This document shows positions 1,701-56,051 of a DNA stretch of 58,341 nucleotides, piece after piece (the stretch's first letter is position 1; every line of letters begins with the position of its first letter). Origin of the DNA: Candidatus Sungiibacteriota bacterium. Lineage in GTDB: Bacteria > Patescibacteriota > Minisyncoccia > Sungbacterales > HO2-52-23. Position numbers and translations under genes: made by a program. Under the pieces are notes generated by a model. It had not been told where the DNA came from. It worked only from the letters and a program-made list of their open reading frames with translations, and ran no database searches. Where the stretch lies: contig JACPBG010000002.1 of assembly GCA_016180435.1 (NCBI GenBank), forward strand, positions 1 to 58,341. The letters are read 5' to 3'.

Positions 1701-1726
1701 ATTTAAATAGAGTATAATGTTTTTAT

Positions 1727-3124: not shown

Positions 3125-3137
3125 TTTTTATCTCCAT

Positions 3138-4502
3138 ATGATGAATTCTGACATTTTTCACGCATATGATATTCGCGGGAAATATCCAACGGAAATAAAT
3201 GAGGTTGTCGCCGAGCGAATTGGAAATGCCGTAGCCCGGTATCTTTCTATCAAGCTTAAAAAAAGGCAGCTGACGTTAATTGTGGTACGGGATGTGCGGA
3301 TGTCTTCTCCGCTTTTGCAGGAGGCATTGATACGAGGAATTACGGCGCAGGGCAGTGATGTAATAGATGCTGGTATTGGCACTACGCCGTTTTTTTACTT
3401 TCTGATTCAAAAGTTTAGAGTGGATGGGGGTTTAATGGTGACGGCATCTCATAACCCCCCTGAATATAATGGGTTTAAAATTCGGGAAAAAGGCGGTGGT
3501 CCGATCTTCATGGGAACCGGTCTGGAGCGGATTAAAACAATGGTACTTTCGCAACGTGCGGTTAGAAATAGGACCGGGGAGCGGATTTTTCCGAAAATGG
3601 ATTACAAAAAAAAGTATTTTGATTTTTTAAGTAAAGGGATTGCAATTGAAAATATACGAGCTGTTATTGACGCTGCCGGTGGGAGCGTTACGTACTTTTT
3701 ACCGGAGCTCCTTGCGCGTTTTCCATCGCTTACATATAAACCTTTGTTTTTTGAGTCGGACGGAAGTTTTTCGCGCCATTCTCCGAATCCGCTTTTACCA
3801 TCCGCACAGAAATTTGTGCAAAAAGAATTAGAAACCGGACAATTTCAGTTTGGGGCAGTGTTTGATGGTGACGGAGATCGCATAAGTTTTTTTGATGAGA
3901 AAGGAAATGCAATCCGTTCCGAGTTCATATCCGCGCTTTTTATGGATGAGGAATTGAAGAGGAGACGCGGGGGTACATATGCATTTGCCGTGAATACCTC
4001 GCGCGGTGCGCGTGAATATATTGAAACCAAGGGCGGCCGGATTGTTTTTATGCCAATCGGTCCTCCACGCGCAAAAATAGTAATGCAACGCACTCATGCA
4101 CTTTATGGAACAGAATTTGCTCCACATTTCTATTTTAAGAAATTTTTCTATAATGACTCTGCTTTAATGGCGCTTTTGCGCCTCGCGCAAATTATTTCCC
4201 GAACCCATCGGCCGTTATCGCAGCTTGTTGCTCCATTTGCGCGTTATATTTCATCCGATGAAATAAATCTTTCTATAAAAGATAAAAAAGCCGCTATGCG
4301 GCGCGTTTTAGAGTTTTATCGCGGGATTCCCGGAGTAAAAATAACTAAAATAGACGGCATTAGCGTTGATTTTTCGGATTGGTGGTTTAATCTTCGGCCC
4401 TCCAATACCGAGCCGTATATTCGTTTAGTAATGGAGGCGCGGACGCAGGAGTTATATGACGAGAAAATGAAAGAACTTGAGCGGATTATCGGAAAGCATT
4501 AA
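3138..4502 (+). CDS. Second phosphomannomutase/phosphoglucomutase family paralog
   Basis: TASHNPPEYNGFK and FDGDGDR loops, 454 aa, tandem to the first paralog. Confidence 0.85.
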   Translation: MMNSDIFHAYDIRGKYPTEINEVVAERIGNAVARYLSIKLKKRQLTLIVVRDVRMSSPLLQEALIRGITAQGSDVIDAGIGTTPFFYFLIQKFRVDGGLMVTASHNPPEYNGFKIREKGGGPIFMGTGLERIKTMVLSQRAVRNRTGERIFPKMDYKKKYFDFLSKGIAIENIRAVIDAAGGSVTYFLPELLARFPSLTYKPLFFESDGSFSRHSPNPLLPSAQKFVQKELETGQFQFGAVFDGDGDRISFFDEKGNAIRSEFISALFMDEELKRRRGGTYAFAVNTSRGAREYIETKGGRIVFMPIGPPRAKIVMQRTHALYGTEFAPHFYFKKFFYNDSALMALLRLAQIISRTHRPLSQLVAPFARYISSDEINLSIKDKKAAMRRVLEFYRGIPGVKITKIDGISVDFSDWWFNLRPSNTEPYIRLVMEARTQELYDEKMKELERIIGKH

Positions 4503-10859: not shown

Positions 10860-12824
10860 ATGGAAATAAATGGAAATATCAGTATACGAAATTTTTGCAT
10901 ATTGGCGCATATTGATCATGGAAAATCCACTTTGGCGGACAGGTTCTTGGAAATTACCGGAACAATACCTTTGCGTGAAATGCACGAACAGTATTTGGAT
11001 ATGAATCCCCTTGAAAGAGAACGCGGCATCACTATTAAAATGACCCCGGTCCGCATGATTTGGCATACGCCAAATCATGCGGAGAACCGGTTACCAGTAA
11101 CCGGTAATTATCAATCAAGTTCAGAATATATTCTGAACCTGATTGATACTCCGGGGCATGTTGATTTCTCTTACGAAGTATCTAGGGCGCTGGCCGCGGT
11201 GGAGGGAGCGATACTTCTGGTTGATGCGACCCAGGGAGTTCAGGCCCAAACCATCGCGAATTTGCGTCTCGCTTTGGCCGAGGGGCTTTATATAATTCCG
11301 GCTATTAATAAAATCGATCTTCCAACTGCGCGCGCGGCTGAAACCAGGGAGGAAATTTTTGAGCTTTTCGCTTCAGAAGGGATCAAAGCCGGAGAAGTTC
11401 TTGAGGTCTCAGCCAAAACCGGGGAAGGGGTTTTGGAGCTGCTGGAGGCAGTGATAGAAAAAATCCCCCCTCCGGGAACCAATAAGCAGTTATCGGTAAC
11501 TAATAACCGGTTACCGGTTATCGGTGATTCAGTTCAACTGCGGGCGCTTATTTTCGATTCGCATTTTGATCCGTATAAAGGCGTTGTCGCGTATGTGAGG
11601 GTAAGGGATGGGATTTTGCGCAAAGGCGATAAAATTTTATTTTTGGCATCCGGCGCCGATGCCGATGCATTGGAGATTGGATATTTTATTCCGCGCCTTT
11701 TTTCCCAAGATAAAATTTTGGAAGGCGAGATCGGATATGTCGCGACCGGAATTAAAGAGCCGTCGAAAGTCAAGGTCGGAGACACCATAGTTAAGCGTTT
11801 AGAACTTAGAACTAAAAACTTAGAAAATAATTTGCTAAGTTCTAAGTTCTCAAATCTAAGTTCTACGGCCGTGGGGCCGTTGCCCGGATACCAAGAGCCG
11901 CAACCCATGGTTTGGGCAAGCATCTATCCGGAGGAAGCGGATGATTTTGACGAATTAAAAGACGCCATGGCGAAGCTTAAATTGAATGATGCCGCTTTCA
12001 TGTATGAGGTTGAATCCTCCGAATCGCTCGGCCGCGGTTTTCGCTGCGGATTTTTGGGGACGCTGCATTTGGAAATCGTATCCGAACGTATTCGGCGCGA
12101 GTATGATTTACAAGTCATGGTTACAACCCCTTCGGTCGCATATCGGATACGTTATGCCCGCGGCCGAGAGGAGATGATTTTTCGCGCGTCCAGCGCGCCT
12201 TCCGGAAGGGAAAAATACGTCATAGATGAGCCGTGGGCCGAGCTTAAAATTGTGACTCCGCCCGAATATATAGGCAAAATTACCGAGGTTTTGCACGAGC
12301 ATCGCGCTATCTCGGGTGATGCTAAAAATTTAGGTTCGCGGCGCATGATTTTATCCTTTTTGGCGCCGCTTAGCGAGATAATCGTGAATTTGCATGATGA
12401 GTTAAAAAGCATAACCCATGGTTATGCCTCAATGGAATATGAGGTAAGCGGCTGGAAGGAGGGAAATCTTTTGCGCTTGAATATTTTGGTCGCGGGCAAA
12501 GATATCGCGGCTTTTTCACGGATCATCCCGCGTTTGAATGCGGAACATGCAGGACGCGCTATACTTATTCGCCTGAAAGAACTTATACCCAAGACGCTTT
12601 TTCCTGTGGCGCTACAGGCGGAAACCGAAGGAAAAATAATTGCGCGTGAAACTATCCCGGCGCTTAAAAAAGACGTGACCGGATATTTATACGGCGGAGA
12701 TCGCACCCGCAAAATGAAGCTCTGGAAAAAGCAGCAAAAGGGCAAGAAGAAACTGAAAGAGCGCGGGGAGGGGGCGGTTGAGATCCCGCCGGAAGTATTT
12801 TTAAAAATTTTAAAATCCAGTTAG
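10860..12824 (+). CDS. lepA: Elongation factor 4 (LepA) with three in-frame repeat insertions
   Basis: AHIDHGKSTLADR, DTPGHVDF, NKIDL G-motifs; LepA C-terminal GYASMEYE. Start at internal Met (MEINGNISIRNF). Confidence 0.95.
   Translation: MEINGNISIRNFCILAHIDHGKSTLADRFLEITGTIPLREMHEQYLDMNPLERERGITIKMTPVRMIWHTPNHAENRLPVTGNYQSSSEYILNLIDTPGHVDFSYEVSRALAAVEGAILLVDATQGVQAQTIANLRLALAEGLYIIPAINKIDLPTARAAETREEIFELFASEGIKAGEVLEVSAKTGEGVLELLEAVIEKIPPPGTNKQLSVTNNRLPVIGDSVQLRALIFDSHFDPYKGVVAYVRVRDGILRKGDKILFLASGADADALEIGYFIPRLFSQDKILEGEIGYVATGIKEPSKVKVGDTIVKRLELRTKNLENNLLSSKFSNLSSTAVGPLPGYQEPQPMVWASIYPEEADDFDELKDAMAKLKLNDAAFMYEVESSESLGRGFRCGFLGTLHLEIVSERIRREYDLQVMVTTPSVAYRIRYARGREEMIFRASSAPSGREKYVIDEPWAELKIVTPPEYIGKITEVLHEHRAISGDAKNLGSRRMILSFLAPLSEIIVNLHDELKSITHGYASMEYEVSGWKEGNLLRLNILVAGKDIAAFSRIIPRLNAEHAGRAILIRLKELIPKTLFPVALQAETEGKIIARETIPALKKDVTGYLYGGDRTRKMKLWKKQQKGKKKLKERGEGAVEIPPEVFLKILKSS
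11085..11110. repeat. CCGGTTA-type repeat module in lepA (copy 1)
   Basis: aaccggttaccagtaaccggtaatta, encodes NRLPVTGN. Confidence 0.7.
11491..11529. repeat. CCGGTTA-type repeat module in lepA (copy 2)
   Basis: tatcggtaactaataaccggttaccggttatcggtgatt, encodes NNRLPVIGD; direct repeat of copy 1. Confidence 0.7.
11799..11866. repeat. TAGAACT heptamer-repeat hairpin in lepA
   Basis: Left arm agaacttagaactaaaaacttag, right arm ctaagttctaagttctcaaatctaagttct; outer 10 bp perfect; translated KRLELRTKNLENNLLSSKFSNLSS. Confidence 0.8.
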
Positions 12825-15790: not shown

Positions 15791-16720
15791 AAATAATGTC
15801 ACCATCTTTTGGGCCTCAGCCGGATTTATCCATTGAATGTTTTTATTTCTTTTAAACCATCTCATTTGGCGTTTAGCATAGTGCAGGGTATTGCGGACTA
15901 TTCGTTCGTATAGCTCATCTTTAGTAATTTTTCTATCAAGATAGTCAAGGGTAGCGCGGTATTCAAAGCCGAATTCCTTAATACGGGATTTTGGCACTCC
16001 TTGGGCGAGGAGTTTTTTTGTTTCTTTTGTAATGCCGTTTCTTATCATGGCGCGGGTTCGGTTTTTAATTATTTTTTCCAACACTGCTGGCGGGGGATTC
16101 AGGCCAAGCCAAAGCGCGCGGTAGGGTGATTGTTTTTTGATGGCCGGCACTTTTCCCAGGGCGCGCGCTATTTCAATCGCGCGAATAAGGCGGCGCGGAT
16201 TTTGGTGGTCAACGGTTCGGGCGCGCGCGGAATCAAGTTTTTTTAACATGCGGTAAAGTTCTCGCGCGTTTTTTTTCTCCAAGTTATTTCGTAATTTTTG
16301 ATTTGGTGGAACTTCAGGCAGATCCAGATCATAAACGAGCGTATCCACCCAAAATCCGGTTCCGCCGACTATTATTGGAATCTTTCCGCGATCCGCAATT
16401 TTTCGGATCGCATTTTCGGCGCATTTTTTAAATTCGGCAACGGTGTAAGTTCTTTCGGGATCTACAAAATCAATGCAGTGGTGGGGAATAGTTTTATATA
16501 CAAAGCGTAGTAGGGTCTGACCCTCCTTTGGAGGGTCAGACCCTACTCGTTGCCATTTTCCGGGGACTCGGGCGGATCCGATATCAAGTCCGCGGTAAAT
16601 TTGCCTTGAATCCGCGGAAATTATTTCGCCGTTGAATTTTCTGGCGATTTTTACGGCAAGTTCGGATTTGCCGGAGGCGGTAGGGCCCACGATAATAATG
16701 AGTTTGACTTTTTGTTGCAT
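15746..16720 (-). CDS. miaA: tRNA dimethylallyltransferase MiaA with in-frame palindrome
   Basis: IIIVGPTASGKS P-loop, IPPT family layout, 324 aa. Confidence 0.93.
   Translation of the reverse strand: MQQKVKLIIIVGPTASGKSELAVKIARKFNGEIISADSRQIYRGLDIGSARVPGKWQRVGSDPPKEGQTLLRFVYKTIPHHCIDFVDPERTYTVAEFKKCAENAIRKIADRGKIPIIVGGTGFWVDTLVYDLDLPEVPPNQKLRNNLEKKNARELYRMLKKLDSARARTVDHQNPRRLIRAIEIARALGKVPAIKKQSPYRALWLGLNPPPAVLEKIIKNRTRAMIRNGITKETKKLLAQGVPKSRIKEFGFEYRATLDYLDRKITKDELYERIVRNTLHYAKRQMRWFKRNKNIQWINPAEAQKMVTLFLFNFFPAPGKRHKI
16510..16546. repeat. Perfect 17-bp-arm palindrome inside miaA
   Basis: gtagggtctgaccctcc-ttt-ggagggtcagaccctac; encodes part of RVGSDPPKEGQTLLR. Confidence 0.85.
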
Positions 16721-19659: not shown

Positions 19660-22600
19660 TTAAGTAATTTCAACAGCATCTTCGCACAGAATTTTCGGCA
19701 CGCCGTCTTTATCGGAAAGCCGTCCCCGCACCATGAGAATTTTTTCCTCCTGCCATACCTCCGGATTTTTGGCGAGAAGCTTGGGAAAAACCAAAACCTC
19801 GGTGCGTGCGGTTAAGTCCTCCATTTGTACGAATAGCATGGGTTCGCCGTTTTTGGTCAAAACTTTTTGGATGCCATTTACAATTCCTCCGATTGAAATA
19901 ATCTGGTTGCGCAATCGTTTTAAGTCCGTTCCAAGGCCATTTAAGGGCAGGATGTGGTTTTGTTTGAGGCGTTCGGCATATTCCTGGAGAGGATGCTCGG
20001 ATACATAAAGACCCAAAAGATCTTTTTCCCAGGAGAGTTTTACGCGCTTGGTGGCGGGCTCGGCATCTTTTAGTTTCAGGGAAGAGACCTTTATTTCCGG
20101 GATAGAGCTGAAAAGATTGGATTGTCCGCTGGACTGCACGCGCTGTGATTCGTGGTTATACTGCAGCAAGATGTCAAGATTCAAAAGCAACTGGCTGCGT
20201 TCTCCCAGGGCGTCAAACGCCCCGCATTTTATCAGGGATTCAAGCGATTTTTTATTAAGATCACGATGATGGACTCGTTCCAGTAGATTGGTAATGGAAT
20301 TGAATTTTCCCCCGTGTCCCCGTGTTTCAAGGATGGAACGCACCACGTTTTCTCCGACGTTTTTTACGGATTTAAGCCCGAAACGGATTTTTTTCTCCGA
20401 AACCAGGGTGAAGTTTTCAAAACTTTCATTTAAATCCGGCGGTAAAACTTCTATCCCCATGGTGCGCGCTTCGGAAACGAAAAAAGCGATACGCTCCACT
20501 TCAAACCCTTCGGCATCCAGGAGCGCGGTCATGAATTCCGTAGGATAGTGCGCCTTCAGATATCCGGTCTGGTAGGCGATCAAAGCGTAGCAGGCGGCAT
20601 GCGAGCGGTTAAAGCCATAGCGCGCAAAAGGCGGAAAAAGCTCCCAGATGGCATTGGCTGTTTGCGGACTAATTCCGTTTTTTTTCATGCCCGAAAGAAG
20701 TTTTTCGCGCTGTTGGGCGAGCAGGGTTTTTATTTTCTTGCCTATGGCTTTACGCAGGGTGTCGGCTTCCGGCAGGGTAAATCCAGCGAGGTCCCGGGCA
20801 ATTTGCATCATCTGCTCCTGATAAATACCGATGCCGTAAGTATTTCTGAAAACCGGCTCAAGCCGCGGATGCAGGTAAGAAACCCGCTCCAGTCCGTTTT
20901 TGCGGCGGATGTAGGATGGAATAAGTTCGATTGGGCCGGGACGGTAAAGGGCAACCAGCGCGATCAGGTCTTCAAGTTCCGTGGGTTTTAATTCTTTAAG
21001 GTAGCGCTTCATTCCGGATGACTCGAACTGGAAAAGGCCGGTTGTCTCTCCGCGCTGAAACAGGGCAAATGTCCCGGAATCATTAAGCGGTATATTTTCC
21101 GTGTTGACCGAGACGTCTTTTGATTTTTTGATAAGAGACAAAGTATTTTCAATAATTGTCAGGTTGCGAAGTCCCAAAAAATCCATTTTAAGAAGTCCGA
21201 GATCTTCTATGGCGTGCATTTCGTATTGAGTGATTACCTGTCGATTGTCTTCGGTATTTGTTCCGCCTCCGGATTTTCGTTCTCCTTGGCGTACGGCATA
21301 TTGTAAAGGCACGAAATCGGTTAAGGGGCCCGGGGAAATTACAACTCCGCAGGCGTGGGTGGAGGCATGGCGCGCCACTCCCTCCAATTTCATGGACGAG
21401 TCAATAAGCCGTTTGACGTCCGGATCGTTGGCGTAAAGTTCTTTCAGTTCCTGCACCCGCTCCAGACTTTTTTTAAGCCACCCGGCCTTTTCTCCTTGCG
21501 GAGAAAACGGCACGAGTTTGGCCAGCCGGTCACAGAAAGAATATGGCATGCCGAGCGCCCGGCCGGTATCGCGGATCGCCGCGCGCGCGGCCATGGTTCC
21601 GAAGGTTATGATTTGCGCCACATGGTCGTGTCCATATTTTTGCGCTACATAGTTTATGACCTCATCCCGTCTGGTGTCGGCAAAATCAAGATCAATATCC
21701 GGCATGGAAATGCGCTCCGGATTCAGAAAGCGCTCAAAAAGAAGATTATAGTGCAGGGGGTCTATGTTGGTAATTCCCAAAAGATAAGACACTATGGATC
21801 CCGCAGCTGATCCGCGGCCCGGTCCAACTACAATTCCGCGGTTTTTAGCCCAAGCTACGAAATCCTGCACAATCAGAAAATAGCTGGCAAATCCGGTCTG
21901 AACAATGACAGCGAGTTCGTATTCAAGGCGCTCTTTAACTTGGAGTTCCAGCGCTGCATTTTGCGCTATGGCGCCTGCATAGCGCTCCTGGATTTTATTT
22001 CGGCAGAGTTCCCCCAGGTATGAATCCGCCGTATAAGGCGAGGGAACCGCAAAAAGCGGCAGTTTGGATTTGCCGAGTTCAATATCGATTTTTACGCGGG
22101 AGGCAATGTCTTGGGTGGCGGCAATGGCCTCCGGATATTCCGGGAAAAGAGAAGCCATTTCCTCCGCCGATCGAAGTGAAAGATTGGCCTGCTTCATAGT
22201 GAGGCGGTCCTCATCTTCAAAGCGGTTGCCGGTTTGCACCGATACCAAAATGTCCTGGGCTTCCGCATCCTCCGGTTTTACATAATGAATGTCATTGGTT
22301 GCTACCAGCGGCGCCCCGGCCTTCCGGGAAAGTTCAACCAGACCCTCGTTTATGGCGCGCTGATCCGGATAGTTAAAATGAGGCGCAATTTCCAAGTAGA
22401 AATTTTCTTTGCCGAAAATTTCCTGATAATCATGTAAAAGCGTTTCAGCGTGTTCCATTTTTTTATTGCGGATAGCGCGCGGAATCTCCCCCGCAAAACA
22501 TCCGGAGAGCGCAATTAAACCCCGGCTATATTGCCGGAGTACGGATTTGTCCACACGGGGCTTATAATAAAATCCTTTGAGATGCGCTTCACTCGCCAGG

Positions 22601-22908
22601 CGCACGAGGTTATGGTAACCCTCGGAATTTTGGGCAAGAACCGTCAAGTGATAGCGGGTGTCATCCACTCCGGGCGTGCGATCCTGCATATGGCCGCGCG
22701 CAACATACATTTCCGCGCCCAGGATGGGATTTATCCCCGCCTTTTTCGCTTTTTGATAGAATTCAATCGCGCCATAAAGGTTTCCGTGATCGGTAAGCGC
22801 TATAGAGTCCATCTTAAGTTCCGCGGCCCGGGCCACAAGTTCGTCAATTTTAGCGAGTCCGTCAAGCAGGCTGTAGTGGCTATGTACATGTAAATGAGTG
22901 AATTTCAT
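19660..22908 (-). CDS. dnaE: DNA polymerase III alpha subunit
   Basis: PHP domain start MKFTHLHVHSHYSLLDG, 1082 aa. Confidence 0.97.
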   Translation of the reverse strand: MKFTHLHVHSHYSLLDGLAKIDELVARAAELKMDSIALTDHGNLYGAIEFYQKAKKAGINPILGAEMYVARGHMQDRTPGVDDTRYHLTVLAQNSEGYHNLVRLASEAHLKGFYYKPRVDKSVLRQYSRGLIALSGCFAGEIPRAIRNKKMEHAETLLHDYQEIFGKENFYLEIAPHFNYPDQRAINEGLVELSRKAGAPLVATNDIHYVKPEDAEAQDILVSVQTGNRFEDEDRLTMKQANLSLRSAEEMASLFPEYPEAIAATQDIASRVKIDIELGKSKLPLFAVPSPYTADSYLGELCRNKIQERYAGAIAQNAALELQVKERLEYELAVIVQTGFASYFLIVQDFVAWAKNRGIVVGPGRGSAAGSIVSYLLGITNIDPLHYNLLFERFLNPERISMPDIDLDFADTRRDEVINYVAQKYGHDHVAQIITFGTMAARAAIRDTGRALGMPYSFCDRLAKLVPFSPQGEKAGWLKKSLERVQELKELYANDPDVKRLIDSSMKLEGVARHASTHACGVVISPGPLTDFVPLQYAVRQGERKSGGGTNTEDNRQVITQYEMHAIEDLGLLKMDFLGLRNLTIIENTLSLIKKSKDVSVNTENIPLNDSGTFALFQRGETTGLFQFESSGMKRYLKELKPTELEDLIALVALYRPGPIELIPSYIRRKNGLERVSYLHPRLEPVFRNTYGIGIYQEQMMQIARDLAGFTLPEADTLRKAIGKKIKTLLAQQREKLLSGMKKNGISPQTANAIWELFPPFARYGFNRSHAACYALIAYQTGYLKAHYPTEFMTALLDAEGFEVERIAFFVSEARTMGIEVLPPDLNESFENFTLVSEKKIRFGLKSVKNVGENVVRSILETRGHGGKFNSITNLLERVHHRDLNKKSLESLIKCGAFDALGERSQLLLNLDILLQYNHESQRVQSSGQSNLFSSIPEIKVSSLKLKDAEPATKRVKLSWEKDLLGLYVSEHPLQEYAERLKQNHILPLNGLGTDLKRLRNQIISIGGIVNGIQKVLTKNGEPMLFVQMEDLTARTEVLVFPKLLAKNPEVWQEEKILMVRGRLSDKDGVPKILCEDAVEIT

Positions 22909-22911: not shown

Positions 22912-22977
22912 TTTACGAAATACGAATCACTACGAATGTACGAATTTGTATATTCGTAAAAATTCGTATTTCGTAAA
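22912..22977 (-). repeat. 66-nt ACGAAT-repeat hairpin immediately upstream of the dnaE start
   Basis: Reverse complement is 65/66 identical to 27195-27260; outer 16 bp tttacgaaatacgaat/attcgtatttcgtaaa. Confidence 0.9.
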
Positions 22978-23097: not shown

Positions 23098-23808
23098 TCA
23101 GGGGATAAATGATTTATCAAATTTTCGCAGGCGATTCTCCATGATGATTTGCCAGTTTTCATCATCATAATACATCAATTTATCTTCCAGATAATTCGTT
23201 TCGTTCATCAGTGATTTTTCGTCCGTATGGCCGGCATAGAAAAGATGGCTAAGTTCATGGGTTAAAACATGTTCGGAGTCTTCATCCCACACGACAATCG
23301 CCGCATTTTTATCCGCATTGGCGTATCCGATATACGGCTCCTCGGTTTCTATTAGGAATTTACTGCCGTCCAGAGTTTCGATTTCGAGTTCTTTGTGAAT
23401 ATACATCGTGCGATGGATAATTCCTATTGTTATATCCGAGGAATTGTTTTTGCCAATATAGGCAATTTCGGAAAGCACTAAATGGGGATTCCATTCATAA
23501 TATAACGATGGGTCGAAAAAGTCATACGTGTCTAAGTACGCCGGAGCATACCAGAGAGCAAATGCGTCAATGGAGAAAGTTATAGAGAAATTTTTTTTAA
23601 AAACATGCGATGCGGTTTCAAAAATTTTACGGATTTTCGATTCAAACTCGCTACGATCTTTCTGTCCGTACATAAGAATTTGATCCAGTAGCACCGTAAC
23701 GCTTACGTTTCGAATTTGTACGGAAGGTTTATCTTCTTGCGGAAGGGCATGGCTGGGCATGGAAAAAAATAGCGCCAGCGCGGCCAAGAGTATATGGAGC
23801 ATACGCAT
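23098..23808 (-). CDS. Secreted HExxH zinc metalloprotease-like protein
   Basis: Signal peptide MRMLHILLAALALFFSMPSHA; HELSHLFYAGH motif. Confidence 0.6.
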   Translation of the reverse strand: MRMLHILLAALALFFSMPSHALPQEDKPSVQIRNVSVTVLLDQILMYGQKDRSEFESKIRKIFETASHVFKKNFSITFSIDAFALWYAPAYLDTYDFFDPSLYYEWNPHLVLSEIAYIGKNNSSDITIGIIHRTMYIHKELEIETLDGSKFLIETEEPYIGYANADKNAAIVVWDEDSEHVLTHELSHLFYAGHTDEKSLMNETNYLEDKLMYYDDENWQIIMENRLRKFDKSFIP

Positions 23809-23988: not shown

Positions 23989-24705
23989 ATGAATTATATT
24001 ATAGGAATTGATGAAGCGGGACGAGCCGCCCGCAAGCGGGCGAGCTTCGCCCATCACCAATTTATTATTGGTATAGATGAAGCGGGACGAGGGCCTTTGG
24101 CGGGACCGGTAGTTGTTGCGGGAATTAAAATAGAACTTAGAACTAAGAATTTAGAACTTAGAAATATACGGGATTCAAAAAAACTGACGGCGCGGCAGAG
24201 AGAAGAATGGTTTAGAATTTTAACCAATCATCCGAAAATAGAATATGCGGTGGCAAAGATTTATCCTAAGGTAATTGACCGGATAAATATCTCGCAGGCG
24301 GCGAATCTCGGGGTTTTACGGGTATGCCGTAAATTATCAACGAATAACGGTAAAACATCATCGAATAACGAATCTCGTACGAATATACGAATTACGAATT
24401 CCAGTATTCGTAAATTCGTAAAGGATTCGTTATTCGCTGATGCCATATTTTTGGACGGCGGTTTGAAACTTCCCCGGCGCATTTCTCATGAGGTGATTAT
24501 AAAAGGCGATGAAAAAATTCCGGCGATTTCCGCCGCATCTATTATTGCCAAAGTAACGCGGGATCGTTTAATGTTCCGTCTCCACAAAAAATATCCCAAG
24601 TACCGGTTTGATCTGCACAAAGGATACGGAACGAAACTTCATTATGTGCTGATACGGAGATTCGGGCATTCTGTCATCCACCGGAAGTCGTTTCGGCTCT
24701 CTTGA
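23989..24705 (+). CDS. rnhB: Ribonuclease HII with three in-frame insertions
   Basis: IIGIDEAGRGPLAGPVV catalytic N-terminus; C-terminal KGYGT motif; start at MNYIIG. Confidence 0.9.
   Translation: MNYIIGIDEAGRAARKRASFAHHQFIIGIDEAGRGPLAGPVVVAGIKIELRTKNLELRNIRDSKKLTARQREEWFRILTNHPKIEYAVAKIYPKVIDRINISQAANLGVLRVCRKLSTNNGKTSSNNESRTNIRITNSSIRKFVKDSLFADAIFLDGGLKLPRRISHEVIIKGDEKIPAISAASIIAKVTRDRLMFRLHKKYPKYRFDLHKGYGTKLHYVLIRRFGHSVIHRKSFRLS
24025..24063. repeat. GC-rich element (variant core GGGCGAGCTTCGCC) inside rnhB, flanked by 27-bp duplication
   Basis: Flanks 23998-24024 and 24064-24090 differ at 3 of 27 nt. Confidence 0.85.
24131..24165. repeat. TAGAACT heptamer repeats inside rnhB
   Basis: tagaacttagaactaagaatttagaacttagaaat, encodes IELRTKNLELRN. 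Confidence 0.8.
24362..24436. repeat. ACGAAT heptamer hairpin (75 nt) inside rnhB
   Basis: Outer 13 bp perfect: cgaataacgaatc / gattcgttattcg. Length is a multiple of 3; encodes NNESRTNIRITNSSIRKFVKDSLF. Confidence 0.85.
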
Positions 24706-25888: not shown

Positions 25889-26151
25889 ATTATCAGAAAA
25901 TTGATGCGCCGCTTGCCGTAGTATTACACGGAGCTTCTAATGACGACGAGTTCGATGTTTTTATCCATGTTGCCGAGGATTTCCGAAAAAAGGAAAAGGA
26001 GCGTAAATTTTTGGAAGATTGCGGCGTATGCGTGGAATTAGACGGTCGGCGTATTTTTACGGCGAAACTTTCTCGTGTTTCTATCGACAAGATATCCAGG
26101 CAGTTATGGGTTAGAATGATTTGCGCTTCATCAAAACTTAAATATAAATAA
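25885..26151 (+). CDS. Hypothetical protein
   Basis: 88-aa ORF, ATGA overlap with the preceding gene; terminator follows. Confidence 0.4.
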   Translation: MNYQKIDAPLAVVLHGASNDDEFDVFIHVAEDFRKKEKERKFLEDCGVCVELDGRRIFTAKLSRVSIDKISRQLWVRMICASSKLKYK

Positions 26152-26173
26152 AGGCCGATTAGTCGGCCTTTTT
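26150..26173 (+). terminator. Terminator
   Basis: aggccga-tta-gtcggcct plus TTTT. Confidence 0.8.
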
Positions 26174-26216
26174 ACATTTGCTTGTCAGACTAAGTGATAT
26201 TTAGTATTATTGAATC

Positions 26217-26501
26217 ATGGTAGTTCGAATGAGACATACCAAGGGCAAGCGTAATCGGGTGCGTTCGCATCACGCGTTAAAATCCGTGCATTTTGCGGCA
26301 TGCGGCCACTGTGGCAAGCCGCTTCGCCCCCACATTATGTGCCAAAACTGCGGCTATTATGGAGGCCGACAGGTCGTTGATGTTCTCGCGAAATTGGACA
26401 AAAAAGAGCGCAAAAAACGGGAAAAAGAATTGCATGCGCATGAAGAAAAATCCGCTGAAGAAGGGAAGACGCTGAATGCGGAAGAATTGTCACATCGATA
26501 A
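26217..26501 (+). CDS. rpmF: 50S ribosomal protein L32 with long K/E-rich C-terminal extension
   Basis: RHTKGKRNRVRSHHAL...CGHCGKPLRPHIMCQNCGYY. Confidence 0.9.
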   Translation: MVVRMRHTKGKRNRVRSHHALKSVHFAACGHCGKPLRPHIMCQNCGYYGGRQVVDVLAKLDKKERKKREKELHAHEEKSAEEGKTLNAEELSHR

Positions 26502-26502
26502 A

Positions 26503-26637
26503 TATCTAAATCCTAAACCCTAATCTCTAAACAAATCCAAAACCCAAATCTCAAAATTTATAGTGAGCTTATCGAATCTACGTTTTAGAATTTTGAAATT
26601 TGAGATTGTTTAGAATTTAGAGATTAGAATTTAGAGA
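26503..26637. repeat. 135-nt imperfect hairpin of TCTAAA/TTTAGA-type repeats between rpmF and nusB
   Basis: Left arm atctaaatcctaaaccctaatctctaaac..., right arm ...gtttagaatttagagattagaatttagagat. Confidence 0.8.
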
Positions 26638-26647
26638 TTAAAATTTT

Positions 26648-27193
26648 ATGGCCAGCAGGCACCTTGCAAGATCAATCGCCATGCAGTCGCTCTTTGAGTG
26701 GGATTTTCAAGGTAAGGATACCAAATCCCTGCCGGAAATCGTGGAGCGGAATAAAAAAGAATTCGGCCCGGGACTTGATGAGGAGTACGGTTTTATTGAC
26801 CGCATGATTAGCGGCGTTGTGGAAAATCTGGATAAGATAAATGCGATTATCGAAAAAGCCGCGCCCGAATGGCCGATTGAACAAATTACTTCGATTGACC
26901 GCGCTGTCCTGCGTCTTGGGCTTTACGAGTTGTTATTCGGCAATCATGATGAGGTTCCTCCTAAGGTTGCGATTAATGAGGCGATTGAACTTGCCAAATC
27001 ATTTGGCGGCGAGTCATCCGGCAGATTTATCAACGGGGTTTTAGGCACTGTGTATAGAGAAATAGGGGAGCCGGGTAAAGATTATCCGAATCGGGCCGAA
27101 CTTGCCAAGAAAAGGGAAGAGGAGAAAGAGAAGGAAGAAGCGGAGAAAAAAGAGGAAACAGGAAAAGAAGAAGAGGAGAAGAAAGAAAAATAA
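26648..27193 (+). CDS. nusB: Transcription antitermination factor NusB with E/K-rich tail
   Basis: [17 protein letters not shown] start, NusB fold length, then a 40-aa EEKEKEE low-complexity tail. Confidence 0.9.
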
Positions 27194-27194
27194 C

Positions 27195-27260
27195 TTTACG
27201 AAATACGAATTTTTACGAATATACGAATTCGTACATTCGTAGTGATTCGTATTTCGTAAA
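27195..27260 (+). repeat. 66-nt ACGAAT-repeat hairpin immediately upstream of the rnc start
   Basis: Ends 5 nt before the GTG start at 27266; 65/66 identical to the reverse complement of 22912-22977. Confidence 0.9.
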
Positions 27261-27265: not shown

Positions 27266-27958
27266 GTGAAGGATCTTTCTCATTTCGAGGAAAAAATTTC
27301 TATAAAATTTAAAAACCCCGATTTATTGCTACAGGCCTTAACTCACCGTTCATACATAAACGAAAATCCTTCGTTTCGGTTAGGGCATAATGAGCGGTTT
27401 GAATTTTTAGGGGATGCGGTACTGGAACTCATCGTAACCGAGGCGCTTTTTGCAAAATTTCCGGACAAGTCGGAAGGAGAACTTACAAGTTTCCGCGCGG
27501 CGCTGGTTAATGCCAATATGCTATCAGACATCGCGGTGGAGCTTGAAATGAACCAATATTTGATGCTTTCCCGCGGGGAGGCCAAAGACATGGGGCGCGC
27601 GCGCCAATACATTTTGGCAAACGCCTTTGAGGCGCTGGTTGGCGCAATTTATCTTGACCAAGGATATGATGTGACGCGCGGTTTTATCAGCCGCGCGGTT
27701 TTGGCGCATTTGGACGAGATTATTTCCAAGAAACTTTATAAAGACCCCAAGTCCCTTTTTCAGGAGGAGGCGCAGGAAAGGGTCGGGATTACGCCGAATT
27801 ACGAGGTGCTCCGCGAATGGGGGCCGGATCATGACAAGCATTTCGTGGTAGGGGTATTTTTGGAAAAAGAATTAGTGGCCGAGGGCGAAGGGCCGTCCAA
27901 GCAGTTGGCGCAGGAAGAAGCCGCTCGGAATGGGTTGCATGTGCGGGGTTGGGTTTAG
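27266..27958 (+). CDS. rnc: Ribonuclease III
   Basis: NERFEFLGDAVLEL signature and C-terminal dsRBD, 230 aa, GTG start. Confidence 0.95.
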   Translation: MKDLSHFEEKISIKFKNPDLLLQALTHRSYINENPSFRLGHNERFEFLGDAVLELIVTEALFAKFPDKSEGELTSFRAALVNANMLSDIAVELEMNQYLMLSRGEAKDMGRARQYILANAFEALVGAIYLDQGYDVTRGFISRAVLAHLDEIISKKLYKDPKSLFQEEAQERVGITPNYEVLREWGPDHDKHFVVGVFLEKELVAEGEGPSKQLAQEEAARNGLHVRGWV

Positions 27959-28293: not shown

Positions 28294-28317
28294 TAAAAAA
28301 ATAGCCGCAGGGCGGCT
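28294..28317 (-). terminator. Terminator of the 28323-28982 gene
   Basis: agccgc-agg-gcggct; T-run on minus strand. Confidence 0.7.
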
Positions 28318-28322
28318 GAAAC

Positions 28323-35208: not shown

Positions 35209-35282
35209 ATATACATTATAGAGTATTGATGAATCATCTTAAAGTCATTGACATCCACAGTATAGGTAGTATACTTTTTGTT

Positions 35283-36263: not shown

Positions 36264-37022
36264 ATGCGTTTTGATATCATAACTATATTCCCCGAAGTAT
36301 TTGAATCATATTTAAATGCCTCAATGATCAAGCGCGCACGAGCTAAAAAACTCGTGGATATTCGGATACACGATTTACGCAATTATGTAAAAGTAGCCCC
36401 TCGACCCGCTTCGCTCTCGCTTCAGCGAGGCGAGCAGGCTCGGGGCAACTTGCCGCTTCGGCGGCAAGTTGATGACCGGCCGTACGGAGGAGGACCCGGC
36501 ATGGTTTTAAAAGTTGAGCCGATTATAAAAGCAATTGAAAAACTTTTAAAACCAATTTCCAATTCCCAATTCCCAATTTCCAAACGAAAGAAGGTAAAAA
36601 TCATTTTATTTTCCGCGGCCGGGAAGCAGTTTGACGCCAAAATAGCTGCGGATTTTGCCAAAAAATACGACCGCATTGTAATGATTGCCGGCCATTATGA
36701 AGGAATAGACGAACGGATTGGTAAAATTATTTTTGAAAATTGGAAATTGGAAATTGAAAATTTGTCGGTAGGTCCTTATGTGCTGACAGGCGGCGAATTG
36801 CCCGCCCTCGTTGTCGTGGATGCCGTATCACGCCACATTCCCGGATTTTTGGGAAAAGCGGAATCATTGGAAGAGAAACGATACGGCGTAGGGCTTCCTG
36901 TTTATACCCGCCCCGAAGTATTTTCGTACAAGGGTAAAAAATATCACGCGCCTAAGATTCTTCTTTCTGGCGACCATAAAAAAATAGAAATTTGGAGGCG
37001 CAAACAAAAAAGAGATATTTAA
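36264..37022 (+). CDS. trmD: tRNA (guanine37-N1)-methyltransferase TrmD with three in-frame insertions
   Basis: MRFDIITIFPEVF start, VDDRPYGGGPGMV, GHYEGIDERI motifs. Confidence 0.92.
   Translation: MRFDIITIFPEVFESYLNASMIKRARAKKLVDIRIHDLRNYVKVAPRPASLSLQRGEQARGNLPLRRQVDDRPYGGGPGMVLKVEPIIKAIEKLLKPISNSQFPISKRKKVKIILFSAAGKQFDAKIAADFAKKYDRIVMIAGHYEGIDERIGKIIFENWKLEIENLSVGPYVLTGGELPALVVVDAVSRHIPGFLGKAESLEEKRYGVGLPVYTRPEVFSYKGKKYHAPKILLSGDHKKIEIWRRKQKRDI
36393..36470. repeat. GC-rich multi-hairpin insertion in trmD
   Basis: Starts with the 15-mer aagtagcccctcgac shared with 4510-4524; contains gcaacttgccgcttcggcggcaagttg hairpin. Confidence 0.75.
36551..36584. repeat. CCAATTT heptamer repeats in trmD (left arm)
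   Basis: accaatttccaattcccaattcccaatttccaaa, encodes ISNSQFPIS. Confidence 0.8.
36731..36763. repeat. AAATTGG heptamer repeats in trmD (right arm)
   Basis: ttttgaaaattggaaattggaaattgaaaattt, complementary to 36551-36584; encodes ENWKLEIENL. Confidence 0.8.
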
Positions 37023-47240: not shown

Positions 47241-47339
47241 GATCGCGGATAGACGCGGATTTTTACTTACGCGGATAAACGCGGATAATTAAATTTATCT
47301 GCGTGAATCAGCGTATTGATCCGCGTAGATCAGCGTTTC
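47241..47339 (+). repeat. GCGGATA heptamer-repeat hairpin abutting the 16S 5' end
   Basis: Left arm has cgcggat(a) x4, right arm has atcNgcg x4-5. Confidence 0.8.
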
Positions 47340-47408
47340 TAAATGAGGATTTGATCCTGGTCCAGGATGAACGCTGGCGGCGTGGATAAGGCATGCAAGT
47401 CAAACGGG

Positions 47409-47508
47409 CACGTGCTTCGCACGGAGAACTTAGAACTAAGAACTTAGAACCAAGCAGTTTCTAAGATCTAAGTTCTAAACGCTAAGTTCTGCGCGCGGAG
47501 TGCGCGCC
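47409..47508 (+). other. 16S insertion 1 (V1/helix 6): clamp hairpins + TAGAACT heptamer hairpin
   Basis: cgtgcttcgcacgga + heptamer hairpin 47425-47490 + gcgcgcggagtgcgcgc. Confidence 0.8.
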
Positions 47509-47591
47509 AGTGGCGAACGAGTTAGTAATACCCTGGTACGTACCCCAGAGACGGGAATAACTCCGCGAAAGCGGAGCTAATACCCGATAGT

Positions 47592-48111: not shown

Positions 48112-48281
48112 GCCGTGCTTCGCACGGAATGTCTAATTCCTAATTCACCTAATTCCTAATAAAATGCCCAATAAAAAAATGTCTAATGTCCAAAAACAGC
48201 TTTTGGGCTTTGGCAATTTGATATTTTGAATTTTATTAGAAATTAGAAATTAGATGTTGGAAATTTCGCGCGGAGCGCGGA
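48112..48281 (+). other. 16S insertion 3 (V3 region): same clamps as insertion 1 + TAATTCC/TTAGAAA hairpin
   Basis: 15-mer cgtgcttcgcacgga at 48114-48128, identical to 47411-47425; 3' clamp cgcgcggagcgcgg. Confidence 0.8.
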
Positions 48282-48593: not shown

Positions 48594-49390
48594 GATCGCT
48601 CGTTTGCATATTGTCCGCTCAAAAACTACGGGCTGGACAAATGGAGCCGAAAACAGAACGGGAGCCCTCCGGCAGAGCCGGTTTCCCTTGTTCTGTTTTC
48701 TCACCATTTGTTAACCAGCCCTCCGTTAATTTCGCGGAGCAATACGCAAACTCGCTTATTAGAGGGATAATAAGATGTTAAAAGTATTGTTTTTTTCGGC
48801 ACTGTTTATTGTATTCGTGGCAAAAACTAACACTAGCGAAAACAGTGTTGATATTATATTCTACAGTTTTATGTCAGGAGTTTCGTTTGTCTTAGTTTTT
48901 GTTAACATTTATTTGAAACTTAAAGCGAACCGGAAGGGTATCCGGTGAGAACAACTAGTCCCTCCGATGAAAATCGGAGATAAAATTCCACTGTATCGGT
49001 GAAAGGCCTACTGCGGAAACGCAGGGTTAACGCCGAGGCAACGCTTACACAATTTTCGAACGTTAATTACTAATTTTTAATTCGTAATTAGGAATTGGCA
49101 ATTGCGTAAGCAGAGTCCGTAGAGACTGAACGTGGAACCCAGCTCTTTGTTGAAGCAGGGCAACTTGTTTGCCCCTTTAGCAAAGAACTGGTGATGTCAC
49201 AGTCCGAACTATGCAGTAATGCATAGAGCTAATCAGAAATGCGTTAGCCGGCAGCAAGTTTTGGAATTCTGGATTTTTAAATTTCTGATTTGCTTGCCCC
49301 GTAGTGAACGTGCAACGTTCTACCATCGGGGTTTAGAAATTAGAAATTCGGATTTAGAAATTCCAAATTTGTTGCGAGCAACAAATTTGT
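48594..49390 (+). mobile_element. 16S insertion 4: about 0.8-kb putative intron in the 790 loop, no homing-endonuclease ORF
   Basis: Splits the universal AGGATT|AGATACCC. Boundaries can be drawn with U before the 5' splice site and G as the last inserted nt. Confidence 0.6.
48775..48948 (+). CDS. Speculative 57-aa two-TM peptide ORF inside insertion 4
   Basis: GAGGGA 8 nt upstream of ATG; MLKVLFFSALFIVFVAKT...VSFVLVFVNIYLKLKANRKGIR. Confidence 0.2.
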   Translation: MLKVLFFSALFIVFVAKTNTSENSVDIIFYSFMSGVSFVLVFVNIYLKLKANRKGIR

Positions 49391-49751: not shown

Positions 49752-49936
49752 CCCCCTCCAAGCCCGAAGGGCTTGGAGGCACAGATGTTCACAGATTTCT
49801 AACGGATTTTCACAGATCACAGATTCACACGGAAACCTTAACAGGCTACATCCGTAATTATCCGTGATCTGTGGTAATCTGTGGAATAATCTGTGTTAAT
49901 CCGTGGAAAACTCGTCATTGCGGGTTTGGAGGGGGG
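49752..49936 (+). other. 16S insertion 5 (helix 40 region): GC hairpin + CACAGAT heptamer hairpin
   Basis: ctccaagccc-gaa-gggcttggag, then cacagat repeats paired with atctgtg repeats. Confidence 0.8.
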
Positions 49937-50159: not shown

Positions 50160-51087
50160 TCGGGTCGCTATGCGGTTCAATAAGCGAGCAGGTTTAAATC
50201 CTGCCAAGAAAATGCAGTTTTTTGAAGCGAAATCGCAGTCCTTCGAGGGGCGACCCTCAGGATGAAGGGCGAAAGTAGCAGCTGCCAGCTTGAATATTCA
50301 TCGAGGCGCGATACAGGCGGTGACCCTGCGAGTACATGGGGAAACCACTGCATAAAATGCCTTATCGCGTATACCGAATATCGAGACGGCAGAGAACCGT
50401 TTATTGGGTTACCATAGGAGATCTTGCATAATTCTCGTAGTATATCTATACTCGAGATAGGAACGTGGATAACTTCGTTCCAATGTTATGCAAGAAGTCA
50501 GCAGAGTTCGTAGTAGCAAGAGTGATTCTAGATGCCGCAATCCGCGGCTTCGAGCGCCTCTTGCGAAGGAACAAATTCAGGCAAAAAAACTTCATCCGCA
50601 GTATATTGCGGGATTCATTGATGGCGAGGGTTCGTTCGTCGTGAGTTTCGGGCGCCATAAAACGCTCAAGCGCGGCATTGAAATCCGCGTTGAATTCACC
50701 ATCGAACTTCGCGCCGACGACAGAGAAATTCTTTATCGGATATTAAAAACCATCGGATGCGGAAAAATTTATGACGCATCATATGAACGATACGGATGGT
50801 ATCCGCATGTCAAATATAAAATCACAAGTACCAAGGATATGGAAAAATATCTGATTCCGTTTCTGGATAAAACGCCGTTACAGGCCAAGAAGCGAAAAGT
50901 ATATAGGGTATTTCGTGAAATTGTTTTGATGGTGCGGAGAAAAGAGCATTTGACCGATAAAGGATTTAAAAAGATCTTCAGATTGCGCAACGAATATCGT
51001 AAATACGGAAAGAAGCGCCTGAAAACCGCCAGGGTACGGGAAAACCGTTCGCCCGGTGGTGTGAGACAATAAGTAAAATTGATCTTA
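50160..51087 (+). mobile_element. 16S insertion 6a: putative intron with LAGLIDADG ORF
   Basis: Begins right after conserved CTTTGTAC; ORF stop is 15 nt before ATACCGCC (51088-51095). Confidence 0.65.
50488..51072 (+). CDS. LAGLIDADG homing endonuclease (single-motif type)
   Basis: YIAGFIDGEGSF motif, 194 aa, inside 16S. Confidence 0.9.
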   Translation: MQEVSRVRSSKSDSRCRNPRLRAPLAKEQIQAKKLHPQYIAGFIDGEGSFVVSFGRHKTLKRGIEIRVEFTIELRADDREILYRILKTIGCGKIYDASYERYGWYPHVKYKITSTKDMEKYLIPFLDKTPLQAKKRKVYRVFREIVLMVRRKEHLTDKGFKKIFRLRNEYRKYGKKRLKTARVRENRSPGGVRQ

Positions 51088-51095
51088 ATACCGCC

Positions 51096-52008
51096 AATTA
51101 ATAAAGTGCCCGGCAGCTTAATTGACTAGTTGGTTAAAGTCCAACCTCCCATTGCATATGGGACGTAGCCAAAAAAATAGCAGTCCACTATCCGTAAGGT
51201 TGTGGATAAAGGGCTTGAGGCAAATGGCAGCCTATGATACGATTAGAATATTGAACGATCGCCGCGGGCGGTCAGCGGGAAGTTCAATTATTTCCATCAT
51301 AGGATGCCGGGAATAGTTAATTAAGTGACCCGGGGAGATCCTAAACAGTCGAGTCATAATACTCGTTTAGGAAGTCAGCTGGCGTCATAGTACCGAGCAC
51401 TCAACCTGCACTACGCTCGTTCTGCGTTATGCGCAGTGCAAGTTGAGTGCTCGGGAAGGAGCCAACCAAAATTATGCTATCTCCTGATTATATTGTTGGA
51501 TTGACTGACGGTGAAGGTAGCTTTACCGCATATATACGGCCACCCAAGAAAGAGCATGGTTCTAAAAATTATCGGATTGAATGTCATTATTACATAAAAC
51601 TGCGTGAAGACGACCGATCACTTTTAGAAAATGTCAAAAATTTCTTTAGAACAGGACGGGTGGTATTTCAGCGGGAAAACCGGACGAATCATCATCATAT
51701 GTATCGATTTGAGGTTACGAACTTGCATGATCTGCAAAATTTAATAATTCCTTTTTTTGAAAAACATAAACTTCAAAGCAAGCGAATTAAAGATTTTGAA
51801 TTATTCAAGAAGATCGTTAAAGCGGTACTGAATAAAGAACATCAAACCGAAAATGGATTGCGAAAGATTCAACAATGGAAAAAGAAGATGCATCAATATA
51901 TGGGCTCGCCGAATACGGGAAACCCGTACGTTCGGTCTCGATATAGAAAGTCGAGGGTTCGATTAAAGAATCGGACTGGAAACGGGAAATAGACTCAATT
52001 ATCCCAAT
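51096..52008 (+). mobile_element. 16S insertion 6b: second putative intron with LAGLIDADG ORF
   Basis: ORF stop is 17 nt before conserved CCGTCACG resumes at 52009. Confidence 0.65.
51447..51992 (+). CDS. LAGLIDADG homing endonuclease (single-motif type)
   Basis: YIVGLTDGEGSF motif, 181 aa, inside 16S. Confidence 0.9.
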   Translation: MLGKEPTKIMLSPDYIVGLTDGEGSFTAYIRPPKKEHGSKNYRIECHYYIKLREDDRSLLENVKNFFRTGRVVFQRENRTNHHHMYRFEVTNLHDLQNLIIPFFEKHKLQSKRIKDFELFKKIVKAVLNKEHQTENGLRKIQQWKKKMHQYMGSPNTGNPYVRSRYRKSRVRLKNRTGNGK

Positions 52009-52330
52009 CCGTCACGTCAAGGAAGCCGGGAGTAGGTGAAGGCTGTCGCAAGACAGTTCAATCTAAACTCGGTGACAGGGACGAAGTCGTAACAAGGCAT
52101 CCCTAGCGGAAGCTGGGGATGGAACAATCTTTTTAGGGTTATATTCGAGCAAAGCATCAAGAAATCCGGATAAAACCGGATACGCTTGGAGAAGGCCCTC
52201 CGTTCTAACAAGAATGCGGTTTTCTCTCGCATTTGCTCACTACCTTAGGTTGATACCGCAATTTTTTGCGGGAATAAGTGTTGATCTCTAACTTTCAAAT
52301 GGAGATCGTGCGGATCCGTCGCTAACGGAT

Positions 52331-55949: not shown

Positions 55950-56051
55950 TGCGCGCACTAGGGATCGAACCTAGGACCTCGTCATTATCAGTGACGCGCT
56001 CTGAGCTATACACCCGTAAAAAGGTGGGAGGGCCAGCTGAGCTATGCGCGC
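55950..56051 (-). tRNA. tRNA-Ile(GAU)-like gene with a 37-nt D loop (about 28-nt insertion)
   Basis: GCGCGCA/TGCGCGC acceptor, GCTC/GAGC D stem, CGTCA-CTGATAA-TGACG anticodon arm, CTAGG-TTCGATC-CCTAG T arm; function uncertain. Confidence 0.5.

Follow-up and report, generated by a model that had tools for sequence, protein, structure and literature searches.

A heptamer-repeat palindrome ahead of the RNase III gene in a Candidatus Sungiibacteriota bacterium, one of a dispersed family of hairpins and possibly co-opted at rnc

The window analysed here is a contiguous stretch of 58,341 nucleotides from a Candidatus Sungiibacteriota bacterium (contig JACPBG010000002.1, positions 1 to 58,341). Its plus strand carries rpmF (ribosomal protein L32, identified by Pfam; 26217–26501), nusB (26648–27193; Pfam NusB, E = 5.6e-34) and rnc (27266–27958), the last of which starts at GTG and encodes an RNase III of 230 aa with catalytic domain and dsRBD (Pfam Ribonuclease_3 and dsrm). 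The gene for DNA polymerase III alpha, dnaE (Pfam DNA_pol3_alpha/PHP), lies on the minus strand at 19660–22908. A promoter-like TTGTCA-17-TATTAT (26182–26210) ends 6 nt before the ATG of rpmF, the first gene of a putative rpmF-nusB-rnc unit, and a consensus scan placed a bidirectional canonical terminator with GC stem and T-run after rnc (28302–28318), as well as other ordinary terminators at 26150–26171 and, for the gene upstream of dnaE, at 23105–23090. The promoter scan found none before nusB or rnc, and the hairpin that fills the nusB-rnc gap leaves no room for one. The layout of promoter, rpmF, hairpin, nusB, hairpin, rnc and terminator looks like one unit; with a promoter ahead of rpmF, none before nusB or rnc and a terminator after rnc, the hairpin before rnc is most likely transcribed inside the rpmF-nusB-rnc message. 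A promoter within the 3' arm of the hairpin was considered and rejected, as the TAAAAT there stops 3 nt short of the start codon, a distance that is too small, and no rnc promoter emerged from the scan. Homologues of the RNase III with 60–85% identity come from organisms named Candidatus Sungbacteria or Sungiibacteriota and from other Parcubacteria, and nusB and rnc are adjacent in almost all of the loci from about 80 relatives. The longer order dnaE-peptidase-rnhB-rpmF-nusB-rnc is kept in L005, whose RNase III is 85% identical, and in L009, a complete genome of 923 kb (CP066690).

The nusB-rnc intercistronic gap is filled by a 66-nt palindrome of what we call the TACGAAT family (27195–27260, plus strand; TTTACGAAATACGAATTTTTACGAATATACGAATTCGTACATTCGTAGTGATTCGTATTTCGTAAA), which begins 1 nt past the nusB stop (end 27193) and finishes 5 nt ahead of the rnc GTG (27266). 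Its two arms of 33 nt are complementary at 29 of 33 positions, and the sense RNA is predicted to fold into 17 bp, a 1x1 loop, 8 bp, a second 1x1 loop, 4 bp and a tetraloop at -34.3 kcal/mol (z = -6.45), with none of 200 shuffled sequences folding as well. A second copy, 65/66 identical, lies in the dnaE leader (22912–22977, minus strand) and finishes 3 nt ahead of the dnaE ATG. It is the reverse complement of 27195–27260 except for one central difference (ACGAATTCGT versus ACAAATTCGT) and, since dnaE is on the minus strand, both copies have the same orientation relative to their gene; like the rnc copy, it folds far better than shuffled sequence. A preliminary description of this DNA had reported both the near-perfect hairpin directly 5' of rnc and the like-oriented copy before dnaE, and both observations are confirmed here. 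Fixed orientation is not a trait of the family, members of which were found both ways round, and it may be by chance, or as the trace of a copying event, that the two window copies point the same way relative to their genes. Just 5' of the dnaE hairpin, the alignment with L005 shows a conserved -10-like TTGTATAAT (23002–22994, minus strand) and a conserved AGAGG (22987–22983, minus strand), which together place the dnaE hairpin within a short 5' UTR. An assembly artefact can be dismissed for the rnc copy because four independent SRA assemblies have the same palindrome ahead of an identical rnc gene, with contigs breaking inside the palindrome.

A stable hairpin right after a stop codon could also be an intrinsic terminator or attenuator for nusB. 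This is extremely improbable for the rnc copy, which has no T-run and was not flagged by the consensus scan, while ordinary GC-stem/T-run terminators occur elsewhere in the window, including after rnc itself. Termination at this point would leave rnc without a promoter, and the same element stands in the 5' UTR of dnaE and inside coding genes. On the nusB side of the junction, the Glu/Lys-rich C-terminal tail of NusB (27120–27193) is encoded by purine-rich repeats (GAAGAGGAGAAGAAAGAAAAA) that are partly complementary to rnc codons 3–8 (GATCTTTCTCATTTC), with similar complementarity in L005; in the predicted fold this pairing extends the hairpin, and the rnc start codon lands in an internal loop.

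The arms of the rnc and dnaE hairpins are arrays of TACGAAT heptamers with spacers of 0–3 nt, in which the heptamers pair between arms and the spacers do not (TTT opposite GTG, A opposite C). They are part of a larger population: the window holds about 20 strong hairpins (0.34 per kb), many of which have arms built from other heptamers, among them TAGAACT, CTAAATC, CACAGAT and CGCGGAT, and some of which span an intergenic gap and stop just a few nt short of a start (rpmF-nusB, rnhB and the 16S leader). In 82 hairpins taken from about 80 related genomes, self-match within the arms was 0.48 (lag 7) and 0.50 (lag 14), compared with 0.27 for controls, which makes heptamer periodicity a property of the class that is independent of sequence. 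The rpmF-nusB gap is occupied by a CTAAATC-type heptamer-armed hairpin (26501–26639, plus strand) ending 8 nt before the nusB ATG. Others lie in frame inside protein genes. An ACGAAT-heptamer hairpin with 37-nt arms that are 86% complementary (24356–24442, plus strand) lies in the RNase HII gene rnhB, where it corresponds to about 27 aa that the L009 orthologue lacks, and the frame remains open; neither this hairpin nor the heptamer make-up of the arms had been recorded in the preliminary description. A perfect 18-bp palindrome in miaA (16509–16547, minus strand) likewise forms an open-frame insertion of 18 aa relative to L009, a TAGAACT-heptamer hairpin lies in frame in lepA between domains II and III (11800–11865, plus strand), and a perfect 19-bp palindrome lies inside the ychF coding sequence (1130–1173, minus strand).

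The 16S rRNA gene also carries such hairpins, with a TAGAACT-heptamer hairpin at the tip of helix 6 (47404–47511, plus strand) and further helix-tip insertions at 48113–48280, 48821–48901 and 49802–49882. In place of the 3–6 nt of the Rfam model, helices 6, 10 and 17 have 81, 250 and 159 nt. Short, ORF-less and uncharacterised insertions have been described in rRNA genes of CPR bacteria and were suggested to be intervening sequences processed by RNase III (PMC11270868). The window's hairpin insertions at rRNA helix tips resemble these, a likeness which bears on the other window hairpins rather than on the rnc copy; that study described no heptamer arms and did not tie the rRNA insertions to a genome-wide repeat class. 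Immediately 5' of the 16S rRNA start (47339) is a CGCGGAT-heptamer hairpin (47243–47335) which could be a pre-rRNA processing stem. The 16S gene is furthermore interrupted near position ~1396 by about 1.7 kb (50205–51950), with the 3' domain resuming at ~51990; this insert has two LAGLIDADG endonuclease ORFs (50488–51072 and 51447–51992) and a match to group II intron domains D1–D4 (50458–50571). A tRNA-Ile(GAT) of only 66 nt (55950–56015, minus strand) is not located in an rRNA spacer but about 3.8 kb away from the 3' end of the 16S gene, on the other strand.

Two further genes have unusual internal repeats. In RNase HII, five TAGAACT-like heptamers run in frame in direct rather than inverted order (24130–24166), the same heptamer that forms the hairpins in lepA and in 16S helix 6, and the N-terminal IIGIDEAGR motif is duplicated around a GC-rich hairpin (GAGCCGCCCGCAAGCGGGCGAGC; 23998–24090). 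L009, a distant relative, shares this duplication, which is thus old; the true start codon of RNase HII is uncertain. In trmD, two complementary CCAATTC-type heptamer runs lie 147 nt apart within the coding sequence (36554–36762 and 36390–36450), and there is a separate 20-aa insertion relative to L005 and L009.

The TACGAAT family extends well beyond this genome. At least 120 metagenome stretches, the majority of groundwater or sediment origin, contain its 28-nt core, TACGAATNTACRAATTYGTANATTCGTA; they reduce to at least 68 unique sites. Among the matches listed, 37 of the 68 sites (54%) have an ATG-initiated ORF of 80 codons or more whose start lies within -3 to +15 nt of a hairpin base, compared with 8.7% of random positions; 16 of the 68 show a stop-hairpin-start arrangement and only 10 adjoin a stop alone. 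The genes 3' of these elements are assorted housekeeping genes, encoding RNase HI, T2SS-F, the ribosomal proteins L24, L7/L12, L2, L6 and L21, GroEL, GAPDH, RF1, RRF, DnaJ, CTP synthase, an aminoacyl-tRNA synthetase and DnaE. The element is therefore not specific to rnc or dnaE, and a family so widespread before the starts of assorted genes is not a dedicated RNase III switch. The palindromes occupy the very short spacers of compact genomes and so come to abut start codons. One 5.4-kb groundwater contig (L112) holds three TACGAAT-core hairpins within 2 kb (1402–3372), at least the first two of which adjoin the start of a small minus-strand ORF. Short-read contigs of the present organism stop in or next to TACGAAT hairpins (the ends of L210, the starts of L001–L004), namely at the rnc copy and probably the rnhB copy, while the CTAAATC hairpin is read through, a pattern that fits a family present in multiple copies in the genome. 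A check for strain polymorphism (empty sites) met the same situation, since the contigs encoding an identical NusB or RNase III also stop within or beside TACGAAT hairpins.

Several features recall a mobile element, in particular a MITE. The whole element is an imperfect palindrome and so has terminal inverted repeats, and it is multi-copy, with two copies and one relative in the 58 kb of the window, three in L112 and at least 68 metagenome sites. Target-site duplication was not observed at 60 sites, where the longest word shared by the two flanks was distributed as in shuffled flank pairs, a test in which 2-nt duplications could escape because the element boundaries are fuzzy. No transposase is encoded within the 58-kb window. 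The family had no matches in viral contigs, phages or plasmids, and an origin from a phage or plasmid was discarded for this reason. The literature searched held no link between CPR bacteria and MITEs or palindromic repeat elements.

The dispersal of the family raises the possibility that the palindromes are selfish or neutral DNA (REPIN-, RPE- or MITE-like) with no role in expression, tolerated wherever a hairpin is harmless. Their sites would suit this, being intergenic spacers, protein surface loops and rRNA helix tips, with copies in frame inside coding genes; the family is multi-copy and breaks assemblies, its orientation to genes is variable, and different families replace one another at the same junction. 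What speaks against it, apart from the missing transposase and target-site duplication, is the way in which copies are maintained. DNA of the window and of L005 is 74–87% identical, so that neutral decay would predict about 13 differences per 66 nt, whereas the dnaE-leader copies at the orthologous site are 65/66 identical within a region of about 79% identity, and the miaA palindromes match at 38/39 positions, against 75% identity over the whole gene. Orthologous copies thus outlast flanking and even coding DNA, unlike neutral sequence, which points to sequence-specific maintenance; orthologous palindromes are either under sequence-level constraint or homogenised. The family also persists before the same genes in divergent genomes, preceding orthologous RNase HI, L24, L7/L12 and response-regulator genes where proteins are 45–66% identical, and hairpins are enriched at specific junctions (see below). 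We consider a purely selfish or neutral nature unlikely on this balance. As for the rnc copy, it is identical to the L005 dnaE hairpin over 67/67 nt (27194–27260) despite the divergence of the two genomes and, to judge from this identity, looks like a recent duplicate of a dnaE-type copy.

A comparison of nusB-rnc loci from about 80 phylogenetically related Parcubacteria, using a strict hairpin score, revealed a clear excess of hairpins at this junction. A strong hairpin is centred within 100 nt before rnc in 29 of 80 loci, compared with about 2% per 100-nt bin elsewhere. Hairpins follow the nusB stop in 25 of 70 cases, compared with 60 of 514 for the remaining ORFs of 100 aa or more in these loci (odds ratio 4.2, p = 1.6e-6 by Fisher test, a value that overstates independence because the loci are related). 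Upstream hairpin rates were 36% for rnc, the highest of the genes tested, 24% for nusB (17/72), 14% for smc, 13% for dnaE (5/39), 8% for rpmF, 7% for rnhB, 4% for khpA and 0% for rpsP. The 3–4-fold excess at the rnc junction is real; as nusB is enriched too, it may reflect internal operon junctions rather than rnc itself. Among 79 nusB-rnc junctions, 44 have a stably folding gap of at least 45 nt and 32 have a gap of less than 45 nt, often an overlap. The preliminary description had looked to conservation of the element upstream of rnc in related genomes, and here the hairpin recurs but the sequence does not, the junction hairpins dividing among 15 or more families with unrelated sequences. 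In L005 the nusB-rnc gap contains a TGACAT-heptamer hairpin unrelated to that of the window, and in L009 an ACGAAT-type hairpin.

These counts bear on whether the hairpin is a dedicated autoregulatory leader, that is, the feedback site of RNase III itself, with the shared copy putting dnaE under the same control. In Escherichia coli, RNase III autoregulates through a stem-loop in the rnc leader, and the present element is likewise a stem-loop 5' of rnc and a plausible substrate of the encoded enzyme. The rate of hairpins before rnc (29/80, or 44/79 when stably folding gaps are counted) and the recurrence of unrelated sequences as the same structure, as expected if the helix alone matters, argue in the same direction. 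The window element nevertheless differs from E. coli rncO in being intercistronic rather than at the transcript 5' end, in having no sequence or structure homology to it and in being a generic repeat that also precedes unrelated genes. A search at gathering score matched neither rncO nor any other Rfam family, and in a scan with permissive settings the only matches were to generic long-hairpin (miRNA precursor) models, all of them below threshold. A dedicated leader is further at odds with the identical family ahead of dozens of unrelated genes, with the 32 of 79 relatives that lack a gap of that size at the junction and with dnaE leaders being at background (5/39). The coupling of dnaE to the same control, as proposed earlier, therefore rests on one lineage; the dnaE link looks incidental, the dnaE copy being just another family member. 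We regard a dedicated leader as an unlikely reading, its case also being weakened by the comparison of strands that follows.

If the transcribed helix were under selection, the sense strand might be expected to show it. In 29 nusB-rnc stems, G.U pairs (52) are no more frequent than A.C mismatches (53), and of the 29 junction hairpins the antisense strand is the more stable in 21 and the sense strand in 8. Among the oriented TACGAAT sites, 27 of 36 likewise have an antisense strand that folds more stably than the sense strand (p = 0.001). With neither a G.U excess nor a sense-strand stability advantage there is no sign of selection on a sense RNA helix, an outcome that counts against a dedicated leader and accords with selfish or neutral DNA. 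The palindromes behave as symmetric objects at the DNA level. The absent RNA-strand signature weakens a role for RNase III, but a helix of about 20 bp remains in every case; hairpin copies within coding genes would be harmful if every such helix were cut. The earlier proposal of the rnc hairpin as an RNase III control element thus stands in part: a helix of about 29 bp is predicted if the gap is transcribed, and hairpins recur at the junction, but the element is not rnc-specific and carries no RNA-strand signature.

The setting of translation starts in this organism is also unusual. The 3' end of the 16S rRNA (52084–52134, end 52134) reads GGAACAAUCUUUUU where the consensus is GGAUCACCUCCUUU, and CCUCC is missing. 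Without an anti-SD, canonical SD pairing is not usable in this organism, and the missing SD before rnc and dnaE, which the preliminary description had pointed out, is uninformative and has no significance. The same finding disposes of an SD bridged by a looped-out dnaE hairpin (AGAGG lies 5 nt before the hairpin and would be 8 nt from the ATG once the hairpin is looped out), and an SD-like word upstream of only 3 of 38 TACGAAT-family sites also counts against bridging. A TATAAT-like, -10-like hexamer ends 4–9 nt before the start in 9 of 48 window genes, where 1.7 are expected (examples are 1709–1714, 26205–26210 and, on the minus strand, 35215–35220), which suggests that first cistrons may be leaderless or near-leaderless in this organism.

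Heptamers a few nt from start codons in an organism without anti-SD could be protein-binding arrays, at the level of DNA or of single-stranded RNA, that are read by a conserved factor for SD-independent translation or global regulation. A published parallel is provided by the TAACTGA heptamer direct repeats of Beggiatoaceae, cyanobacteria and Bacteroidetes, which lie a few nt before the starts of unrelated genes including ribosomal protein genes, in a setting where canonical SDs are rare or absent and with some copies inside ORFs (PMC4679880); a conserved factor has been proposed for these repeats just upstream of starts (PMC4679880; bioRxiv 10.1101/2022.06.06.494920). The strict 7-nt period of the arms, the conservation of heptamer motifs next to non-complementary spacers and the conservation of sequence, not merely of pairing, between orthologues would all be in keeping with binding by a protein. 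The TAACTGA repeats and Nostoc STRR-type heptamers share with the window elements a 7-nt unit adjoining start codons in an SD-poor setting, but TAACTGA-type repeats are direct and in one orientation, whereas the window elements are mainly inverted sets forming long hairpins, with many heptamer families per genome. So many families in a small genome would need many factors, copies also lie inside coding genes and rRNA, the inverted layout buries the heptamers in a helix and no candidate protein has been identified. Protein-binding arrays are, on this evidence, a quite unlikely explanation.

Among known dispersed repeats, the closest functional precedent is provided by the Correia elements (NEMIS) of Neisseria, which are likewise dispersed palindromic repeats adjoining many genes. 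They are co-transcribed with these genes, and their hairpins are bound and cut by RNase III with a change in the expression of the neighbouring gene (PMC2649163, PMC10969869). Cleavage by RNase III has been shown for Correia elements and is predicted by analogy for the window elements. Correia elements measure 100–155 bp and have defined terminal inverted repeats, a TA duplication and an IHF site; the window elements, unlike these, measure 60–140 nt, have a heptamer array for the whole arm and no detected duplication, and coexist in many sequence families.

The palindromic elements of Rickettsia (RPE) occur between genes and, inserted in frame, within housekeeping protein genes whose ORF they leave intact (PMC10969869). 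In-frame palindromes with an intact ORF are similarly found here in rnhB (~27 aa) and miaA (18 aa), with further ones in the lepA and ychF coding sequences; RPEs are set apart by description, being about 100–150 bp long and from a different phylum. To our knowledge RPEs have no heptamer periodicity, and we know of no reported link between them and start codons or rRNA helix tips.

REPs and REPINs, which are associated with RAYT (Y1) transposases, are short extragenic palindromes that form hairpin doublets, are multi-copy without target duplications and are long maintained, some of them inside genes (PMC3733652, PMC3116915). An unpaired GTAG or CGTC tag at one end defines a REP (PMC3733652). 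Such a tag was ruled out as a feature of the window copies, which end in TTTACG...CGTAAA; CTAC...GTAG occurs in only 9 of 60 family members, where it is paired and part of the heptamer. REPs are mostly downstream of genes, while TACGAAT-family sites abut start codons (37 of the 68 listed), and no RAYT gene is present within the window. TIGR-Tas arrays consist of tandem units with dual spacers and box C/D motifs adjoining a Tas (Nop-domain) gene (PMC12045711). This identity was rejected, as the hairpins are single and dispersed and the window has no Tas gene. A LexA-type box such as the Cheo box was rejected as well, given the unsuitable spacing and downstream genes that do not form a DNA-damage set.

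Taken together, we favour, at a probability of about one in two, the reading that the rnc hairpin is a copy of a generic heptamer-repeat palindrome which was maybe co-opted at rnc, rather than a purpose-built rnc operator. It belongs to a large and apparently undescribed class of heptamer-periodic palindromic repeats, which are common in Parcubacteria (CPR). The rnc copy would have arisen as a recent intragenomic duplicate of the dnaE-leader copy and displaced an unrelated hairpin, of a type still found at the same junction in the closest relative. Transcribed within the rpmF-nusB-rnc message, it would fold into a helix of about 29 bp that separates the nusB stop from the rnc GTG. By analogy with the Neisseria Correia repeats, this helix would be a generic RNase III substrate, and cleavage at the nusB-rnc junction would make rnc expression respond to RNase III activity. 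Such feedback as a co-option is plausible on this analogy and is supported by the 3–4-fold excess of hairpins at the junction.

We posit more speculatively, by analogy with the tRNA punctuation of mitochondrial transcripts, that in this bacterium, with its missing anti-SD and seemingly leaderless first cistrons, heptamer hairpins abutting internal starts might serve as a form of 'punctuation'. As signals for processing or initiation, they would release or mark the downstream cistrons, either through cleavage by RNase III or through a protein that reads the heptamers; the rnc hairpin would then tie the level of the enzyme to its substrate class. We think it rather improbable that this wider scheme holds.

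CPR bacteria account for a large part of bacterial diversity. In the short spacers of their genomes a single structural class of repeat is widespread, namely palindromes whose arms have a 7-nt period; this class also enters protein genes in frame and accounts for short insertions in 16S rRNA. Orthologous copies are kept more faithfully than coding sequence, and the repeats are most frequent ahead of the gene for the enzyme that cuts dsRNA. If the link to RNase III is true, it would offer a simple, testable model of post-transcriptional control without Shine-Dalgarno pairing. If it is false, the hairpins would still represent a new palindromic repeat family that breaks assemblies, inflates ORF calls and complicates rRNA-based surveys.
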